From Promethearchaeota archaeon (GTDB taxonomy: Archaea > Asgardarchaeota > Lokiarchaeia > Sigyniarchaeales > SOKP01): DNA of 64,000 nucleotides. The position numbers and the translations under genes are program-made. Of this stretch, positions 17,950 to 41,475 are shown in pieces. The first letter of the stretch is position 1, and each line of letters opens with the position of its first letter. The DNA is taken from the NCBI GenBank assembly GCA_048937405.1, contig JBHLNF010000003.1, forward strand, positions 264,807 to 328,806. Reading direction: 5' to 3'. Under the pieces are notes generated by a model, which was not told the DNA's origin, did not search any database, and was given only the letters and a program-made list of their open reading frames with translations.

Positions 17950-18507
17950 CTACTTAGATATATTCTGCAGAACTTTTTCAAATTCATTATAATCTGCCTC
18001 AATCTCAAGACAAATGGATAAATTTCTTAAGTTTTGATTTTTTTCTACAAGGAACTTTTTCATTGTAGGAAGCATTGTTTTAGCGCATAGTTTAGAAGTG
18101 ATTCCTCTCATTTCTATAGAGATAGGAGGAAATACAATCGAAGTAATACCTATCTCGTCGGCTAAAAGTAATGAGTTCCAAGTGGCCAACATTAATTTTT
18201 TCCCTTCGTTTCCTTGTCCTGGCCTTGGACCATTAGTATGTATTATATATCTTATAAAATCACCCCCAGAGGTAAGTATAGATTTTCCTACCGAGACTTG
18301 AATTATTTTATTAATTATTTTATTACATTCAACTTGTACCTGAGTTCCAGCTTTTTTTAAAACTTTACACCTTAGATCACCACTAGGGAGGAGCCTACTA
18401 TTAGTAGGAATCACAATTGCGTCATATTGTTCAATATTGGTTAAATCCCCTATAAAAATTTCAATAATCGAATTGTTAATAGTTATTTGATGCATTAAAA
18501 ATATCAC
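17950..18507 (-). CDS. Macrodomain protein (degenerate ADP-ribose-binding motifs)
   Basis: GDLT...DAIVIPTN, IIHTNGP, SIVFPPIS. Probable start is ATG at 18495, after a GGTGAT SD. Confidence 0.85.
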   Translation of the reverse strand: MIFLMHQITINNSIIEIFIGDLTNIEQYDAIVIPTNSRLLPSGDLRCKVLKKAGTQVQVECNKIINKIIQVSVGKSILTSGGDFIRYIIHTNGPRPGQGNEGKKLMLATWNSLLLADEIGITSIVFPPISIEMRGITSKLCAKTMLPTMKKFLVEKNQNLRNLSICLEIEADYNEFEKVLQNISK

Positions 18508-18567: not shown

Positions 18568-19056
18568 TTATTTCTTAGAAGATTTATTTAAATCTATTAT
18601 TTTCTTAATTGCTTTTTCAACATTCTCATCAATAATTCTAAGAACTTCCTTATATCTCTCGACTGAAGTATAGTAAGGATCAATAATATCTATGTTATGA
18701 GTTTCTCCATTAAATTCTTTTAGTGTAAAAGTTTTTTTCTCAATATTTTCAATAACATTGAAATTTTTTATAATATCAAGTGAATGTTTTTGCTCCATAG
18801 TGAGAATTAAGTCCTGTTTTTTTAATAATGTACTGTTGATTATTTTTGGAATGAAATCTGAATTCTTTATTCCTTTAGAATCCAGGTATTTTCGAGATTC
18901 AGGTTGCATGTAAGTGAAAGCGTTGAAAAAACCACATGAATCAATTTCTAAATCTACGTTAAATTTCTTTGTATAATAACGAGCTAAATATTCTGCAGCT
19001 GGAGATCTTGCTGTATTGCCTAGGCATATGAAGAGAACGTTTTTAATTTTACTCAA
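18568..19056 (-). CDS. Low-molecular-weight protein phosphatase (LMW-PTP/YwlE fold)
   Basis: FICLGNTARSPAAE P-loop, DLILTM, IIDPYY. Confidence 0.9.
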   Translation of the reverse strand: MSKIKNVLFICLGNTARSPAAEYLARYYTKKFNVDLEIDSCGFFNAFTYMQPESRKYLDSKGIKNSDFIPKIINSTLLKKQDLILTMEQKHSLDIIKNFNVIENIEKKTFTLKEFNGETHNIDIIDPYYTSVERYKEVLRIIDENVEKAIKKIIDLNKSSKK

Positions 19057-19195: not shown

Positions 19196-20866
19196 ATGAC
19201 TGAAGTAGAAAACAAAGAAGCAATGGAAAAAGCCCATTTGAAAAACTGGTTCAGTAGGACATTTACAAGAGACATAAACTTATCAAAAGATACTTTAATT
19301 TATTTATTTTTCTCTATGCTATCAATTACAATTGTAGCAGAAGCATTTTTATTTGAATATACAATTTCTACAGGAGGAGTTTTACATGTTGGTTTAGAAG
19401 TCTATGCATTATTAATTATACTTGCTATTAGCTTTCTGATTTCTGGTATTATTGTAGATTTCATTAAGAATAGAACTAATTATTTTAATATCACACTGAT
19501 GGTTTGTATTATCGGACTTTTTATAAGTGCTATTCCAGAAATGGTTTTTTATTATTTTGGTTTGCTAATAGTTCTCTTAACAGTTCCACAATTAGTTATT
19601 CTATGGTTCACATTTTTCGTACATGAAACAAATATTTTAAATCGTGGGAGGATAGCTGCATACTTACTCATTTTAGGTTTTTCTATAGCGTTTGTATCTA
19701 TTATATTTGTTGTTTTTGACTTTTTATATACATTTTTAGGTATTTTAGAACTCGGATTATTTTTAATTATTTTCAAATATTCTAGAGGGTATAAATATAT
19801 AGAAACCAAAGAACGATTGAAATCGGGTAAAAAATTTTTGAATATAATTTTTGAAAAACATTTCTTTAGATATTCAACTAGTTTTTTTGTATTAAGCTTT
19901 ATTTTGGGTGATTTACTTGCAAGATATAGTTTTGATGTTGACTTAATAATATACGCAATAGCTTCTTTTTTGTATCTTATCGCAGCAGGATATTGTTTGG
20001 ATAATATTGGACGGAAAACATCTATAGTTCTTGGAATTTTAGTTCTTTCATTTTTTCTGATATCTTATGGTTCATTCATTGATTCAGATTATATTTTCGG
20101 TATGCCTAGAAAAGTACTTCTCTCTATTCATTATGGATTTTCCTTATTACCTCTTCTACTTGCTATCTTTACAATTTCAGGAGACTTTTCAACAGAGAGA
20201 GGAAATTTGAAATATAGGGGTAGAATAAATGGAATGTATTTAGCTCTAATGTTTTTTGGAACAATAGTGGGATTTACTTTTAGTCGTTTGATAAATGATG
20301 TGTATAATAGGTTTCCTAGTTTTCAAGAATTTTTACCTAATTTTCCCAATCTTCTAAATGGTTTTATATTAGTTATACTTTTAGTTTGGATGATGGCTAT
20401 GAAAGAATTCCTCGTCTCAAAAGAAAAGAAATGGGCAGATTCTTTAAAGACCATTATTATTTTTAGCAAAAATGGGATAAGTCTTTATAATTACAATTTT
20501 GAACAGAAGGATTTATTTAAAGATGAACCAGATCAAATTGATTTCGATGAAGATTTAGTATCTGGGGCATTAACAGGCATTTCGTCTCTTCTTTCCGAAA
20601 TAACTCATACAAAAAGACATCTTAGACATATTCAAAAAGAAGATGCCACTCTGATATTTGCTTATGGTAAATATCATATTGCTACTTTAATTGCTAATAT
20701 GGATTTGCCAATTTTATTCAAAAAACTTGATGAATTCTCCCGAGAATTTGAAAGTAAGTTTGTAAAAGAACTTAAAAATTTTAAGGGAAATGTTTCTCAT
20801 TTTGAACCTACAAAATTCTTATTAATCAAGTATTTCAGTAAAAAATACGATGATTTTATGGAATAA
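19196..20866 (+). CDS. MFS-fold 12-TM membrane protein fused to a C-terminal longin-like domain
   Basis: About 12 TMs with MFS loop motifs GIIVDFIKNR, NRGRI, GYCLDNIGRK and YRGRING. Soluble tail IIIFSKNGISLYNYNF...DEDLVSGALTGISSLLSEI...LDEFSREFESKF. Confidence 0.75.
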   Translation: MTEVENKEAMEKAHLKNWFSRTFTRDINLSKDTLIYLFFSMLSITIVAEAFLFEYTISTGGVLHVGLEVYALLIILAISFLISGIIVDFIKNRTNYFNITLMVCIIGLFISAIPEMVFYYFGLLIVLLTVPQLVILWFTFFVHETNILNRGRIAAYLLILGFSIAFVSIIFVVFDFLYTFLGILELGLFLIIFKYSRGYKYIETKERLKSGKKFLNIIFEKHFFRYSTSFFVLSFILGDLLARYSFDVDLIIYAIASFLYLIAAGYCLDNIGRKTSIVLGILVLSFFLISYGSFIDSDYIFGMPRKVLLSIHYGFSLLPLLLAIFTISGDFSTERGNLKYRGRINGMYLALMFFGTIVGFTFSRLINDVYNRFPSFQEFLPNFPNLLNGFILVILLVWMMAMKEFLVSKEKKWADSLKTIIIFSKNGISLYNYNFEQKDLFKDEPDQIDFDEDLVSGALTGISSLLSEITHTKRHLRHIQKEDATLIFAYGKYHIATLIANMDLPILFKKLDEFSREFESKFVKELKNFKGNVSHFEPTKFLLIKYFSKKYDDFME

Positions 20867-21050
20867 TTAAGTCGAGATATTTCTTTACTTGTTTCTCATA
20901 AAAGTTGATTATGCTAGAATGGGTTCAACAAAAATATTAAATAAGAAGACATCCTAAAAAATACTACTAACTTCATTCGCATTTTGATATTGGTTTTTAA
21001 TTTAGAAAGAAAAAATATTAGATAATAAGATTCGATACAAAATAATAACT

Positions 21051-22712
21051 ATGAAAAGAAATTTCAAATACTCCCTTGGCAAGTTGTTTGCTAGAGATGT
21101 GGATTTAGAGAATACCTCGCTTCTTTATCTTTTTTTTTCTTTTCTTTCTATTTCATTTACAGTTGAATATTTTATTCTAAAATTTTTTATACAGATGCAA
21201 GTTGGATTAGAAATAGAATTACCTGTGATTATGACATTATTCGTAATATCTATCCTTTTTTTAGCTTTTGGCTTTTTTATTGATAGGATAACAAACAAAA
21301 CACAATTTTTCAATATAGTTTTGTTGATTTGTATTATAGGTTTATTATTAACTACCTTCACACACCCTCTATTTGATATTTTTGGGATTTTAATTATCCT
21401 AATAACAATACCTCAATTAATATTAATCTGGTGTTCAACTTTAGATCATGAAACAAATATTTTGAATAGAGGTAGAATAACTGCTATGATCTTAGTCTCT
21501 AGTTATTTGTTTAGTTTGCCTGTTATCTTTTTCTTGTTTTTTAAGGATTTATATATATTTCTTATCATAATAGAATTTTTTCTTTTAATTATAACCGTTA
21601 TTATTTCGCGCTTTTATACCTATATTGAGACTAAAGACAGATTAAAATCTGATAAAAAATATTTTGATATCATTTTCGAATTACACTTTTCAAGATATTC
21701 AGTTGGTCTTGCTTTTTTAAGTGGTCTTTTAGGAGGTTTGTTAAACGATTCTTTGGCTTATTTTGAAAGTTATAAAATTAGTATTCTTACTTTTTCAATA
21801 GCTTCTTTCTTTTATATTCTTGCAGCTGGTTGGTTTTTTGATTATATGGGTAGAAAGAATTCATTAGTTCTTGGTATTTTATTAGTTTCATTTTTTTATA
21901 TATCATTTGGGTCATCTTATATAGGATCTCCGAATGATCCTGTTTTTGGTATGCCTAAGGAAATCCATATCTCTCTTCATTATGCATTTGCGATTCTTCC
22001 ATTAATATTAGCTATAATCACAATAGCGGGAGATTTTTCAACTGAAAGAGGGAATTTAAAATATAGGGGAAGTATAAATGGACTTTTTCTAGCATTAATG
22101 TTTTTTGGGATAGGTTTAGGATATTTATTATATAAAATGATTGATCTCCTTTATAATAATTTTGAAGAAATGCAAATTTGGGTACCAAACCTACCCAATC
22201 TACTAAACTCATTTGCATTAGTTATAGTTCTTGTTTGGATGATGGCTGGCAAAGATATATTAATATCTAAAGAGAAAGATTGGGCAAAGTCATTAAAAAA
22301 TCTTTTTGTTTTAACTAATAGTGGAGTTTGTTTATATAACTATGATTTTATACTTAAAAGACAAGCTTATGGAGAGGAAGAAGAGGAAAAAGAGTGTGAA
22401 TTTGATGAGGATTTAGTGAGTGGTGCGCTTTCTGGTGTGATTACAATAATCTCTGAAATCACAAGAAGTTCAAAACACATTAAAAAGATTGATAAGGAAG
22501 GTAATCATCTTTATTTTGCATTTGGAAAATACCATATAGTGGTATTGATTACCTCTATGGATTTACCTATTTTAAAGAAAAAATTGGATGCTTTTTCAAG
22601 GACCTTTGAACAAAATTTTTCAGAAGATGTAAAAAATTTTAGAGGTAATGTTGAAGTATTTTCTCCAACAAGATATATGATAGATAGGTACTTTAGTCAA
22701 AAATATATTTAA
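21051..22712 (+). CDS. MFS-fold 12-TM membrane protein fused to a C-terminal longin-like domain (paralog of 19196-20866)
   Basis: Shares HETNILNRGRI, GWFFDYMGRK, GDFSTERGNLKYRG, LVWMMA and FDEDLVSGAL with its neighbour. Confidence 0.75.
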   Translation: MKRNFKYSLGKLFARDVDLENTSLLYLFFSFLSISFTVEYFILKFFIQMQVGLEIELPVIMTLFVISILFLAFGFFIDRITNKTQFFNIVLLICIIGLLLTTFTHPLFDIFGILIILITIPQLILIWCSTLDHETNILNRGRITAMILVSSYLFSLPVIFFLFFKDLYIFLIIIEFFLLIITVIISRFYTYIETKDRLKSDKKYFDIIFELHFSRYSVGLAFLSGLLGGLLNDSLAYFESYKISILTFSIASFFYILAAGWFFDYMGRKNSLVLGILLVSFFYISFGSSYIGSPNDPVFGMPKEIHISLHYAFAILPLILAIITIAGDFSTERGNLKYRGSINGLFLALMFFGIGLGYLLYKMIDLLYNNFEEMQIWVPNLPNLLNSFALVIVLVWMMAGKDILISKEKDWAKSLKNLFVLTNSGVCLYNYDFILKRQAYGEEEEEKECEFDEDLVSGALSGVITIISEITRSSKHIKKIDKEGNHLYFAFGKYHIVVLITSMDLPILKKKLDAFSRTFEQNFSEDVKNFRGNVEVFSPTRYMIDRYFSQKYI

Positions 22713-22782: not shown

Positions 22783-23283
22783 TTAACCATTTTCTAACTT
22801 ATTTATTCTAATTATCTTTTTAATAGTTTTTAAAACACCATATTCAATTCTTTTAAGAACTATATTGTATTCCTTTTGTTCAAAATAGAAAGGGTCTTCA
22901 ATCTCCAAATTCTCTTTTTCCCCAGCATAATCTAAAAGAAGAAACACTTTTTCGTCAAGATTTAAATTTTTAAATCGTCTTTTTAATTTATTAATATGTC
23001 TTTTTTGCTCAAAAGCTAAGATAACATCTTGATTTTTAACTATATCCTCATTAACTCTTTTTGTCCTAAAATTAGTTATGTCTATTCCCTTAGATTTCAA
23101 ATAATTTACGGTTACATCTTGAGCTGTCTCATAATAATGATATAATCCTGCAGAATCGAAATCTACATCTTTTAATTCGTTTATAAACCTATTTTTTTTC
23201 AACCATTTCGCATATTCTGATGCAAATGGTGATCTACATGTATTTCCTGCACAAAAAAACAACACCTTACGTATTTTTGGCAT
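22783..23283 (-). CDS. Low-molecular-weight protein phosphatase (LMW-PTP/YwlE fold)
   Basis: FFCAGNTCRSPFA P-loop, DSAG, EIEDPFY. Confidence 0.92.
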   Translation of the reverse strand: MPKIRKVLFFCAGNTCRSPFASEYAKWLKKNRFINELKDVDFDSAGLYHYYETAQDVTVNYLKSKGIDITNFRTKRVNEDIVKNQDVILAFEQKRHINKLKRRFKNLNLDEKVFLLLDYAGEKENLEIEDPFYFEQKEYNIVLKRIEYGVLKTIKKIIRINKLENG

Positions 23284-23465: not shown

Positions 23466-25886
23466 TTGAGCATGGTTGAAGATATTAAGTTTAAAGAATA
23501 TAAACAGGATATTGAATCATTATTCACCCCAAAAAGTAAGTATACTTTCTTAGTAGGTGCTGGGATCTCTATGGATCCTCCAACAAACATGCCTTCTGCG
23601 ATACAGATTGTTAAAGGATTATTGGAACTATGTGCACCTCAAGAAGAAATAAAAAATTTGCTTTCTCTTGATATGCTTAGATATGAGCTAGTAGTAGAGA
23701 AGATACAAGATATTTTTGATGAAGATTTAAGATTCTTAGATTATTTAGAGAATGTTACTGAACCAAATCTCATCCATATGTTTTTAGCAAATATTATTAC
23801 TAGAGGTAATTATGTTATAACTACCAATTTTGATTATTTAATTGAGCAAGCTTTACTGCGTGTTCTAGATGATCAATGGCATCAAGATATATTACCAATC
23901 ATTACTAAGGAAGATTACATCTTTTATCGAGATCCGGATAACCTTGTGAAATCAAATAAATACCCTATATTTAAAATACATGGTTCCAAACGTAATATTA
24001 TCACTGATAAAGATACAAAGGATTCACTTATCACTACAATGAGTGCTTTGGGAAAAGAACGTGGAGAAGGGGAAACATTCACGATTGAACCATATAAAAA
24101 ACCCACAGTATTTAATTTAATGAACAATCGATCTTTAGTTGTTTTAGGATATTCTGGTAGTGATGATTTTGATATAGGGCCAACATTAAGGGAATTACCT
24201 TATCTTAATCGTATTATCTGGATTGAACATTCTCAAAATGCTTATCCAGAAATAATTAAAATAAGAACGAGGGAAAACTTAAGTCCTTCAGATGAAATTT
24301 CTCCTCTAGAGCAAATGTTAACTGATATAAGTTCTTCTGGCGATTTTGAAGTTATCTTAGTTAGAATTCACACTAATAAATTCATCCAAAAATACTTATG
24401 GAAAATTTTCTTACCTTATCATCCTTTAAACGAAACAAGTTTAGGTGGATCAGATAATAAAGAAATTCCGAATTTCTTGGAATGGATAAAACCATTATAT
24501 GAAAATATACCTAAAGTTGAAAAATACAAATTTGCATGCCAATTATTCTACTATTTAAAAGAAATTGAAGCCGCAAGTCGTTGTTCACAAAGAGGTATTC
24601 AAAACGCAGAAGAAATAAATGATATCTCTTCAAAATCATACTTTTTGAATTTTTTAGGTTTAATTACTCAAATTAAGGGAAATTATGCTAATGCATTAGA
24701 ACATTATCAGAATGCCTTACGAATTGATCAATCTTTAAATGACGTTGCAGGTATTGGTTCAGATATCAATAATATAGGTTCTATCTATTTAACTATAGGG
24801 AAATATGATGAGGCCCTTGAAAAATATCACCAAGCTTTAGAAATAGCCGAAAAATTAGATGACAAAGGAAGTAAGGTTACTTGCTTAAATAATTTAGGAA
24901 GAGTACATGAAGTGCGTCATGAATTTGACTTAGCTTTAGAAAATTATTTAGAAGGGATCCAAATTACTGAAGAAGTGGGAGATCTAAATAGCAAAGCACT
25001 CCTTTTAAATAATATAGGGATGATTTACAGAGCCAAAGAAGAAAATGAGCAAGCAATTAAATATTTTTATGAATCCGTACAAATTTCAGATCTTTTAGGA
25101 GATGTTTATGGTAAAATAATAGTGCTAAACAATATAGGAAGGGTTTATGATGAATCTAAAGATTATGAAAAGGCTTTAGAAAAATATAATGAATCTATAA
25201 AATTTGCTGATCAATTAGGGGATTTGGCAAAAAAGGCAGGAAGTATGAATAATATTGGTTCAATTTATTTAGCTCAAGGGAATACAGATAAAGCGTTAGA
25301 AATATATCAAGAAGCATTGAATATCGAAGAGCGATTAGGAGATCCGTTGATGAAAATAATTTACCTTAATAATATCGGAATGATTCACAATAGTAGGGGT
25401 AATTATAACGTCGCTAAACAAAAATACAATGAAGCTTTAACCATTGCAAATGATATTGGTGATTTATCTAAAAAAGCCCTTCTTTTAACCAAAATAGCCT
25501 CAATAAATATGATACAAGAGGAATATCAATCTGCTCTTGAACAATACGAAGAAGCCGTTTTAATTTTTGAAAATATAGGAGAATTATCTAATAAAGCTGC
25601 GACTCTTAGTAATATCGGAAAAATTTATGAGACTTTTGAAAATCATTATGAAGCATTAAGACGTTATGAAGAAACTCTCACGATAGATCAACAATTGCAA
25701 GATCCTATGGGAATAGCAAGTGATTTTTATAATTTAGGAAGAGTATATACAATCCAGGGAGAATATCGGAAAGCATTACAAAATTATGAAGAAAGTATAA
25801 AAATATTTGATCAATTAGAACAAAAACAGTATGTTGATGTCATCAGAAGCAAAATTGATGAAATACAGAAAAATATTGGAAAATAG
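23466..25886 (+). CDS. SIR2-like domain protein with C-terminal TPR array
   Basis: FLVGAGIS, ITTNFDYLIE, FKIHGS, VLGYSGSD, followed by ~11 TPR units of about 40 aa (LNNIG..Y.......AL..Y..AL.I...LGD). Confidence 0.9.
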   Translation: MSMVEDIKFKEYKQDIESLFTPKSKYTFLVGAGISMDPPTNMPSAIQIVKGLLELCAPQEEIKNLLSLDMLRYELVVEKIQDIFDEDLRFLDYLENVTEPNLIHMFLANIITRGNYVITTNFDYLIEQALLRVLDDQWHQDILPIITKEDYIFYRDPDNLVKSNKYPIFKIHGSKRNIITDKDTKDSLITTMSALGKERGEGETFTIEPYKKPTVFNLMNNRSLVVLGYSGSDDFDIGPTLRELPYLNRIIWIEHSQNAYPEIIKIRTRENLSPSDEISPLEQMLTDISSSGDFEVILVRIHTNKFIQKYLWKIFLPYHPLNETSLGGSDNKEIPNFLEWIKPLYENIPKVEKYKFACQLFYYLKEIEAASRCSQRGIQNAEEINDISSKSYFLNFLGLITQIKGNYANALEHYQNALRIDQSLNDVAGIGSDINNIGSIYLTIGKYDEALEKYHQALEIAEKLDDKGSKVTCLNNLGRVHEVRHEFDLALENYLEGIQITEEVGDLNSKALLLNNIGMIYRAKEENEQAIKYFYESVQISDLLGDVYGKIIVLNNIGRVYDESKDYEKALEKYNESIKFADQLGDLAKKAGSMNNIGSIYLAQGNTDKALEIYQEALNIEERLGDPLMKIIYLNNIGMIHNSRGNYNVAKQKYNEALTIANDIGDLSKKALLLTKIASINMIQEEYQSALEQYEEAVLIFENIGELSNKAATLSNIGKIYETFENHYEALRRYEETLTIDQQLQDPMGIASDFYNLGRVYTIQGEYRKALQNYEESIKIFDQLEQKQYVDVIRSKIDEIQKNIGK

Positions 25887-40605: not shown

Positions 40606-41475
40606 TTAAGAAATTTCTTTAATAGCTTCTTTCAAAATTGCTAAGATTTTTTCCCGATACATGGGTTCGATTGAAATCATTCCATGAGTTTTAATTATAC
40701 GCTTTTCACTCGATAATATTTTTTCGCAAAATTCTGGTGTTAACCTATTTGGTAAATCTTGTTTATTAGCGATACCAATTACAAATTTATCTTGATAAAA
40801 TTTATCTAAAATATCATGTATAATTTCTTTAGAACCATTAATATTTTCAAAGGTAGAATCAGTCACTAAAATACAAATATCAGATCCTTGTAAAAGGCTT
40901 TTCCATAAAGATCTAAATTGAGCTTGACCTGCAAAATCCCATAATGTTATGGATCTTTCAAACTCATCTCCATCATATGAAGCGATATCCGCTGTGATGG
41001 TTGGAACATATTCAAGATTTACATCCTTTCCACAAATCAATTTTGTCAAAGTAGTCTTTCCTACACCACCAAATCCAATAATTGATATTTTAATTGCTCC
41101 TAAAATTATATTATCTAATTCATGTTCAAAATCACTGAAAATACTTCGATTCCCCGCCCAACTCCCATCCTCTAAAATTTTACCGAAATTCTCAATGAAT
41201 TTTGTTCTAATACTTAAGATTTTTGAATTAACAGTTGCATCATCATCTTCTAAATCGGTACATACTACAATTATAATTGTATCAATTATTGTATAATAAT
41301 ACTTAAAATCCTCTGTAGCTGTACTTTTTATATCACTCTGACTAATTTCTTTCATAAAACCAGAAAACGCACTTAAAAATCCAGCTAATAAATCTCTATC
41401 TACCTCCGAATTACCATAATTTCTAAATAACAATGATTTGCCATCTCTCGTCAAAACGTTTATGTATTGAATCAT
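40606..41475 (-). CDS. Longin domain fused to a small GTPase (Arf/Rab-like)
   Basis: N-terminal MIQYINVLTRDGKSLLFRNY...DLLAGFLSAFSGFMKEI; G1 GFGGVGKT, G2 YVPT, G3 WDFAGQ, G4 NKQD. Confidence 0.88.
   Translation of the reverse strand: MIQYINVLTRDGKSLLFRNYGNSEVDRDLLAGFLSAFSGFMKEISQSDIKSTATEDFKYYYTIIDTIIIVVCTDLEDDDATVNSKILSIRTKFIENFGKILEDGSWAGNRSIFSDFEHELDNIILGAIKISIIGFGGVGKTTLTKLICGKDVNLEYVPTITADIASYDGDEFERSITLWDFAGQAQFRSLWKSLLQGSDICILVTDSTFENINGSKEIIHDILDKFYQDKFVIGIANKQDLPNRLTPEFCEKILSSEKRIIKTHGMISIEPMYREKILAILKEAIKEIS

Follow-up and report, generated by a model that had tools for sequence, protein, structure and literature searches.

The question raised by two tandem genes of a Promethearchaeota archaeon is whether a longin domain fused to the end of a membrane carrier could place a platform for small GTPases directly on an archaeal membrane. 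The genes lie in a stretch of 64,000 nucleotides (assembly GCA_048937405.1, contig JBHLNF010000003.1, positions 264,807 to 328,806; hereafter called the window), which is AT-rich (26-34% GC) and sits in a 329-kb contig of a near-complete host genome of 4.47 Mb. The longin is a fold used by eukaryotes to dock and switch small GTPases, and Asgard genomes each encode about a hundred small GTPases together with dozens of longin/roadblock proteins. To our knowledge, these Asgard GTPases are without eukaryotic lipid anchors, and neither a cognate regulator nor a membrane receptor is known for them. Each of the two genes encodes a single polypeptide in which a complete domain with the major facilitator superfamily (MFS) fold and 12 transmembrane (TM) helices is immediately followed by a cytoplasmic longin domain of the TRAPP/Mon1 type. 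Tentatively, and with somewhat less than even confidence, the membrane part is read here as a carrier or sensor input and the tail as a docking platform that would regulate a small GTPase.

The first gene, copy A (19196..20866, + strand), is an open reading frame of 556 residues and the second, copy B (21051..22712, + strand), one of 553 residues with the same architecture. Both copies are paralogues and 49% identical from end to end (BLASTP E-value 4e-163), which bears out the pair of paralogous proteins of about 555 residues described in a first-pass annotation of this DNA. The MFS-fold domain of copy A spans about residues 1-407 (nt 19196-20416, + strand; 12 TM, Foldseek) and its longin tail about residues 408-556 (nt 20417-20863, + strand; model and profile match). 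In copy B, the tail comprises about residues 405-553 (nt 22263-22709, + strand; profile match). A profile of the tail matched both copies over almost these ranges (window 20420-20836, E 4.6e-46, and window 22269-22694, E 8.2e-45).

The assignment of the membrane part to the MFS, with about 12 TM helices, could be corroborated by three lines of evidence. Hydropathy revealed about 12 segments, and a full-length AF2 model built with 39 homologues contains 12 TM helices in a 6+6 arrangement (predicted local distance difference test, pLDDT, of about 80-95 in the TM part), with the N- and C-termini of the domain on the cytoplasmic side and basic residues clustering in the predicted cytoplasmic loops. 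In addition, every match listed from a Foldseek comparison against the PDB has the MFS fold (E 6e-8 to 1e-5, 400-500 aligned columns, target-normalised TM-scores mostly about 0.45-0.72), and the matches listed include SV2A, NorA, VMAT1/2, OxlT, YajR (3wdo), GLUT/PfHT and MelB. The Pfam family MFS_1 matched copy A weakly (E 7e-5, 22.3 bits, below the cut-off of 33.4) and gave no match for copy B; at E ≤ 0.01 it was matched by 28 of the 39 family members, the best of them at 5e-10.

The two sequence motifs for which the first-pass annotation had claimed a presence in both halves of the membrane domain were found to hold in part. Motif A is canonical in the TM8-9 loop of the C-terminal half in both copies (GYCLDNIGRK at residues 265-274 of copy A, GWFFDYMGRK in copy B), with G265, D269, G272, R273 and K274 invariant across the 39 homologues, whereas its counterpart in the TM2-3 loop of the N-terminal half is degenerate (GIIVDFIKNRT) and retains only G84 and D88. 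Similarly, RGRI occurs in both halves of copy A (residues 150-153 and 341-344), but in copy B one of the two loops reads RGSI. These RGRI-type motifs lie within E-x5/6-RG loops following TM4 and TM10. Invariant residues are concentrated in the cytoplasmic gating loops (D88, HET..NRGR at 143-152, G265/D269/GRK and GDFSTER..K.RG at 329-342) and are also found in the central loop (Y201, E203 and EKHF.RY), Y226 being invariant as well. Since these residues are kept in the gating and central loops, the MFS machinery appears to be intact. The majority-residue frequency amounts to 0.84 in the short cytoplasmic loops, 0.79 in the central loop, 0.67 in the TM cores, 0.46 in the outer loops and 0.68 in the longin tail. 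Selection is thus apparently strongest on the cytoplasmic face, which fits a working carrier and fits a carrier-derived sensor as well.

Carriers with built-in regulatory domains are well known, such as those with STAS domains in SLC26/SulP, CBS domains in ClC or the YAM domain in YajR. The proteins might therefore be ordinary secondary transporters whose longin tail gates or dimerises the carrier with no GTPase involved, an explanation which we regard as possible, if rather doubtful. It is favoured by the gating motifs, which are intact in both halves, and by the appearance of YajR, an MFS protein with a cytosolic C-terminal domain, among the structural matches listed; moreover, the conserved central and cytoplasmic loops could serve to dock the protein's own tail.

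Because the full-length model was unreliable for the tail, homologues were searched with the tail alone, covering 1.84 billion representative proteins at a threshold of E ≤ 0.001. This search yielded 665 representative proteins that carry the tail. An alignment of 106 tails was used for an AF2 model of the tail (pLDDT 87, predicted template modelling score 0.82). The model shows the order bb-a-bbb-a-a, and its elements (E13-20, E25-30, H48-66, E74-77, E80-86, E90-96, H101-117 and further C-terminal helices) match the longin order b1-b2-a1-b3-b4-b5-a2-a3; a short extra helix is present at the N-terminus (6-12). In an exhaustive structural comparison (VIA-align), longins ranked on top and were aligned over the whole domain (117-133 residues). 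The best match was the CPLANE (Fuzzy/Intu) chain 7q3d_C with a Z-score of 12.5, accompanied by Bet5 (Z 11.1), the longins of VAMP7 and Sec22 (Z about 11), Mon1/Ccz1 and BLOC-3 (Z about 10.5) and the Lokiarchaeota chain 8yqg_B (Z 9.6), while matches to roadblock proteins were shorter (93-107 residues, Z 8.4-10.8). Foldseek searches with the tail model agree with the longin assignment.

Relations at the level of sequence point in the same direction. The motif IIFSKNGISLYNYNF ... DEDLVSGALTGI ... SEIT (also written DEDLVSGAL...SEIT) is found in both copies, and nowhere else in the tail is conservation among the 39 homologues as high. The tail profile gave weak matches to TRAPPC1 (E 0.004) and Trs23 (E 0.006) among the PDB sequences, and Pfam Sybindin was matched by 21 of the 106 tails (best 3e-5), Intu_longin_1 by 12/106 and Fuz_longin_1 by 10/106, each of these matches being individually weak. 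A single tail sequence yielded no match against PDB sequences, and neither did a tblastn search of a single sequence against plasmids. The earlier proposal of a tail of longin type, made from sequence motifs, is thus upheld by the confident model of the tail, by the Z-scores of 10 to 12.5 for longins and by the profile relations.

The resemblance to the N-domain of a small GTPase encoded further downstream in the window, which had been noted as well, was also recovered. This protein is a longin-GTPase fusion (40606-41475, - strand) with its GTPase domain at residues 129-262 and its longin N-domain at 41122..41472 (- strand). BLASTP of the tail against this N-domain gave an E-value of 0.005, the 106-tail profile matched it at window 41122-41472 (E 1.9e-8), and hhalign assigned a probability of 97.4% (E 1.5e-11, 114 columns). 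Such homology of the tail with GTPase-fused longins speaks against a transporter which merely regulates itself. As to the kind of activity, GAP longins (longins of GTPase-activating proteins) of the folliculin, NPRL2 and SMCR8 type possess a conserved catalytic arginine finger (PMC12290439). No column of the 106-tail alignment contains more than 42% arginine, and no arginine of the tail is invariant in the 39 orthologues. Since no arginine is conserved in the tail, an arginine-finger GAP of the folliculin/NPRL2 type is unlikely and this candidate was rejected; if the tail is catalytic, a guanine nucleotide exchange factor (GEF) or a scaffold would be preferred.

The modules to which the tail is attached in other proteins provide the most informative evidence. 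In almost all of the best 150 of the 665 tail-carrying representatives, the last TM helix precedes the tail, and three kinds of proteins are concerned: 12-TM MFS-like proteins (about 510-630 aa), 6-7-TM proteins (about 345-410 aa), and single-pass proteins that have a signal peptide and a large ectodomain (about 760-800 aa, up to 2,638 aa). In the genome under study, the tail profile matched 34 places. The strongest matches (E below about 1e-14, together with one weaker ectodomain protein) comprise 13 proteins, mostly membrane-tethered; this set includes the two MFS proteins, five 7TM proteins (two tandem pairs among them), four giant ectodomain proteins and one 10-TM protein, with one PAS-PAS-HisKA protein and one short 1-TM protein as exceptions. 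The weaker matches are soluble longins. The tails form a distinct subfamily which is mostly membrane-tethered among matches of E below about 1e-14, soluble longins scoring much lower.

One of the 7TM-longin tandem pairs (C7:710500-714500) is located on the same strand as a gene for a Ras-family GTPase. The GTPase gene (177 aa, L069:2976-3509, - strand) lies upstream of the two 7TM-longin genes (382 aa, L069:1724-2872, and 372 aa, L069:599-1717, both - strand); the three genes are spaced by 104 and 7 bp and look like an operon. Within the genome, no other tails are closer paralogues of the MFS-longin tails than those of this pair. Tails of 7TM-longin tandem pairs match the tail profile with E-values of 1e-31 and 3e-15. 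Two further proteins with such tails were observed. A soluble PAS-PAS-HisKA-longin protein of 608 aa (C17:289800-292100; L067:201-2027, - strand) carries a C-terminal longin of the tail type that shares 33% identity with the copy A tail, the K-x-W lead-in included, and is predicted to be a histidine-kinase-like sensor with a longin output. A 739-aa protein (C28:298500-301200; L068:321-2540, + strand) combines about 10 TM helices, which belong to no family that could be recognised, with a longin tail at residues 613-736.

These relatives are difficult to reconcile with a tail that serves only to gate or dimerise a transporter, since a transporter-specific function leaves the presence of the same tail subfamily on non-transporters (7TM proteins, giant ectodomain proteins with one TM helix and the PAS-histidine-kinase protein) unexplained. 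The same applies to a locus in which the MFS part is gone and only a stand-alone tail of 152 aa is left between the two flanking phosphatase genes (L056:6010-6468, + strand); this protein begins where TM12 would end (MKEILISKEK...). A signalling or adaptor role of the tail is favoured because its relatives sit behind sensor-like modules and because one pair of them is operonic with a GTPase. We infer that the tail could serve as output or adaptor for the sensor-like inputs that precede it, with small GTPases among its partners; this is in keeping with the reported transfer of longins onto signalling domains by shuffling in Asgard archaea.

Several observations weigh against the reading as a GTPase platform and call for caution. 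The first of them concern gene positions. The first-pass annotation had named two GTPases, at 40606 and 43114. The genome contains about 100 small-GTPase loci, and the nearest small GTPase lies 18-20 kb from the MFS-longin genes, compared to a median of 16 kb for random positions. As a random position has a GTPase within 16 kb at the median, the positions of these two GTPases are uninformative, and a positional GTPase linkage at this locus can be ruled out, a finding that equally suits a transporter regulated by its own tail. A Ras-like GTPase was found within the recovered flanks of only 5/54 related loci. In four of these five loci (L036, L037, L040 and L050), a gene for a Rab-like GTPase and an OsmC-like gene are located directly upstream of the MFS-longin gene; the two genes, the OsmC-like one encoding 228 aa, stand between the first phosphatase gene and the MFS-longin gene (L040:4596-5828 and L036:1016-2245, - strand). 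This adjacency counts in favour of the platform reading. The four loci form one clade, in which a member lacking the insert is nested (a nested loss), and the adjacency therefore goes back to one insertion event. The Rab-like GTPase of the L040 type has four equally distant co-orthologues in the genome under study (53-54% identical), which are found at C22:17826, C28:266651, C26:68639 and C10:92400. Prediction of complexes of two L040 tails with the upstream Rab-like GTPase gave scores of 0.43, 0.41 and 0.50, compared to 0.33 for a single unrelated control, values that count neither for nor against an interaction. The OsmC-like orthologue of the genome under study (within C11:9878-14964) is a tandem double with an open frame of 459 aa, which adjoins a soluble longin (C11:13190-13558) and has a Ras-like GTPase nearby (C11:9878-10369).

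The fold and the model also leave room for functions other than GTPase regulation. Longin domains act apart from GTPases in SNAREs, in the sigma and mu subunits of adaptors and in SRX, and longins of these types are also among the structural matches of the tail. Furthermore, in the full-length AF2 model the tail has a pLDDT below 50, so that the model does not fix its placement relative to the MFS domain.

The distribution of the genes belongs to the same side of the balance. Relatives of both genes all originate from Promethearchaeota/Promethearchaeia (Lokiarchaeia-type Asgard) assemblies. In a sample of 301 genomes of the phylum, the family was present in 31 of the 68 other genomes of one Promethearchaeia family (7/70 genera) and absent from all 233 sampled genomes of 29 other families (233/233). 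Even within the genus to which the window belongs, only 10/21 genomes contain it, and several of the genomes lacking it are 97-99% complete. MFS-longin proteins hence appear to be a narrow, patchy and dispensable accessory family. Such a pattern would also be compatible with a lineage-specific, non-signalling accessory gene whose tail was acquired by domain shuffling and is either neutral or used for folding, stability or membrane sorting. Shuffling of Asgard longin/roadblock domains is indeed extensive, and longins have been joined to signalling domains in this way (bioRxiv 10.1101/2020.10.19.343400); the longin fusions described in the searched literature involve GTPases, TRAPPC3 and two-component domains, and no MFS or other polytopic membrane domain is among them. 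Nevertheless, we consider this explanation very unlikely, as the tail equals the TM cores in conservation, with homologues down to 45% identity and many invariant positions, is kept by both paralogues, and remains part of the fusion architecture in distant homologues of 32-36% identity.

The relatives also bear on the question whether two different tails are needed. B-type copies constitute one well-supported clade of 16 rows, while A-type copies and most single copies fall into other clades, and the A/B duplication is old within this organism family. In many related genomes, a single gene is kept at the same site, which has to be counted among the points against the favoured reading insofar as the latter builds on a pair. 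An A/B heterodimer, raised as a possibility by the first-pass annotation, is consequently not obligatory for the family, since the B copy represents one clade and many genomes are single-copy. Still, the pairing of two longins stays a reasonable idea, because tandem pairs recur among the membrane-tethered longins (three in the genome under study).

Both MFS-longin genes are framed by genes for low-molecular-weight (LMW) phosphatases. PTP1 (18568..19056, - strand; Pfam LMWPc E 5e-26) is divergent from copy A and PTP2 (22783..23283, - strand; Pfam LMWPc E 6e-23) convergent with copy B. PTP1 is adjoined by a gene for a macro-domain protein of the ADP-ribose binding/hydrolase type (17950-18507, - strand), a neighbour that most related loci share. 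Down to about 53% identity, the majority of related loci with recovered flanks show the arrangement Macro(-), PTP1(-), MFS-longin(+), optional B(+), PTP2(-), FAD oxidase(+). In the window, a gene for an 806-aa protein with an N-terminal SIR2_2 domain and long TPR arrays (23466-25886, + strand) is located between PTP2 and the FAD oxidase gene; it occupies this site in some related genomes only and, since it is restricted in this way, is likely to be a variable, defence-like insert.

The conserved gene order might suggest a phospho-signalling module in which the MFS-longin proteins are substrates or anchors of both phosphatases, via tyrosines of the central loop or via phospho-arginine. The phosphatases both retain the CX5R(S) P-loop and the DP(Y/F)Y loop (CLGNTARS and DPYY in PTP1, CAGNTCRS and DPFY in PTP2), and Y201 and Y226 of the central loop are invariant, in line with this explanation. 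However, the four checked genomes of the same genus or family without MFS-longin contain a PTP2 orthologue directly beside a PTP1-like gene on one strand. All MFS-longin loci with phosphatase context form one clade, indicating that this context arose once, more distant MFS-longin homologues are without phosphatase neighbours, and in one clade the GTPase-OsmC pair separates PTP1 from the MFS-longin gene. We therefore consider a joint phospho-signalling module decidedly unlikely. As they occur side by side in the four genomes without MFS-longin, the phosphatases seem to mark the site rather than to be established partners. The simplest reading would be that the MFS-longin genes form a cassette, oppositely oriented within a phosphatase array that is older than the cassette, and that repeated losses of the cassette have taken place; the phosphatases may be linked to it in function, but nothing indicates this.

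The phosphatases themselves have their best NCBIfam similarity to Wzb-type phosphatases, at scores far below the cut-offs. An arsenate reductase or arsenic efflux cluster was considered and rejected, given the presence of the DP(Y/F)Y loop and of no pair of cysteines in the region aligned to the redox cysteines of ArsC. In both P-loops a threonine follows GN, and PTP1 is without a second P-loop cysteine. A threonine at this position presumably marks the phospho-arginine phosphatase YwlE, as opposed to classical phosphotyrosine LMW phosphatases with an isoleucine there. Related genomes hold two to three such LMW phosphatase genes in tandem.

Taken together, we tentatively retain the reading as an input module coupled to a GTPase platform. 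In such a mechanism, the MFS part would be a working, conformationally cycling carrier or a carrier-derived sensor, and the longin tail a docking platform tethered to the membrane. The tail would probably be dimeric, A pairing with B where both are present and forming a homodimer in single-gene genomes, and would recruit or regulate a lipid-free small GTPase at the membrane that is encoded elsewhere in the genome. The logic of an input module with a longin output would be common to the 7TM-longin, ectodomain-1TM-longin and PAS-kinase-longin relatives. The more specific proposal of a nutrient transceptor, in which a substrate-driven conformational change of the carrier would reach a longin platform, either A/B or homodimeric, by way of the conserved cytoplasmic loops, and this platform would bind and switch a specific Rab- or Rag-like GTPase, appears unlikely.

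Whatever the partner of the tail, the proteins constitute a new domain architecture from known parts. No description of MFS-longin proteins or of a membrane-tethered longin subfamily in Asgard archaea was found in the searchable literature, subscription-only papers being outside this search. A longin hard-wired to a polytopic membrane protein would be a concrete way to put a GTPase platform on a membrane, and in the MFS version a solute might serve as input. With its relatives of the 7TM, single-pass receptor and PAS-kinase kinds, it makes up a longin subfamily that is mostly membrane-tethered, and even if no GTPase binds, it would still be the first MFS family found here to possess a longin regulatory domain. 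If the transceptor proposal were true, the proteins would be an archaeal single-polypeptide counterpart of eukaryotic nutrient signalling by transporters, longin/roadblock platforms and GTPases, and would show how lipid-free Asgard GTPases reach a membrane. Since the family is narrow and dispensable, it is a lineage-specific elaboration, which neither belongs to the Asgard core nor obviously gave rise to a eukaryotic system.

Among known systems, E. coli YajR (3wdo) resembles the MFS-longin proteins in combining a 12-TM MFS core with a small cytosolic C-terminal domain, but its YAM domain has a different fold and is unrelated to longin. A coupling of transporters to GTPases is known from eukaryotes, where SLC38A9 acts with Rag-Ragulator and PQLC2 recruits the longin-DENN complex C9orf72-SMCR8-WDR41; Pho84 is an MFS transceptor of yeast. 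The likeness to the SLC38A9 and PQLC2 systems is conceptual, as a solute-carrier fold is joined in both cases to longin/roadblock platforms regulating small GTPases. In these systems, however, the carrier and the longin or roadblock partner are separate polypeptides, neither carrier belongs to the MFS and there is no sequence relation, and sensing and GTPase coupling are putative for the MFS-longin proteins.

The closest known structures are the TRAPP core subunits Bet5/TRAPPC1 and Trs23/TRAPPC4 (Sybindin, PF04099), Mon1-Ccz1, CPLANE Fuzzy/Inturned and BLOC-3, which share the fold and the order of secondary-structure elements with the tail. The TRAPP and tri-longin Rab GEFs gave its best structural and its only recurrent sequence-profile matches, and the paired paralogous tails echo their heterodimers. 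In contrast, TRAPP and tri-longin GEFs are soluble complex subunits recruited by lipids or other proteins, whereas the MFS-longin proteins carry it as the C-terminal tail of a polytopic membrane domain; unlike the paired GEFs, MFS-longin is often single-copy, and a partner GTPase, a GEF activity or a TRAPPC3-like subunit would be hypothetical for it. Within the same genome, the 7TM-longin pairs share the tail subfamily, the tandem arrangement of paralogues and the position of the longin directly after the last TM helix, but their 6-7-TM bundle is not an MFS domain, and one of these pairs is operonic with a GTPase while the MFS-longin pair is not. The phylum and the expansion of longins are shared with the Asgard longin-GTPase fusions and soluble longins described previously (Tran et al., 2024, PMC10933270; 8yqg roadblock-longin), from which the MFS-longin tails differ in forming a separate, mostly membrane-tethered subfamily.

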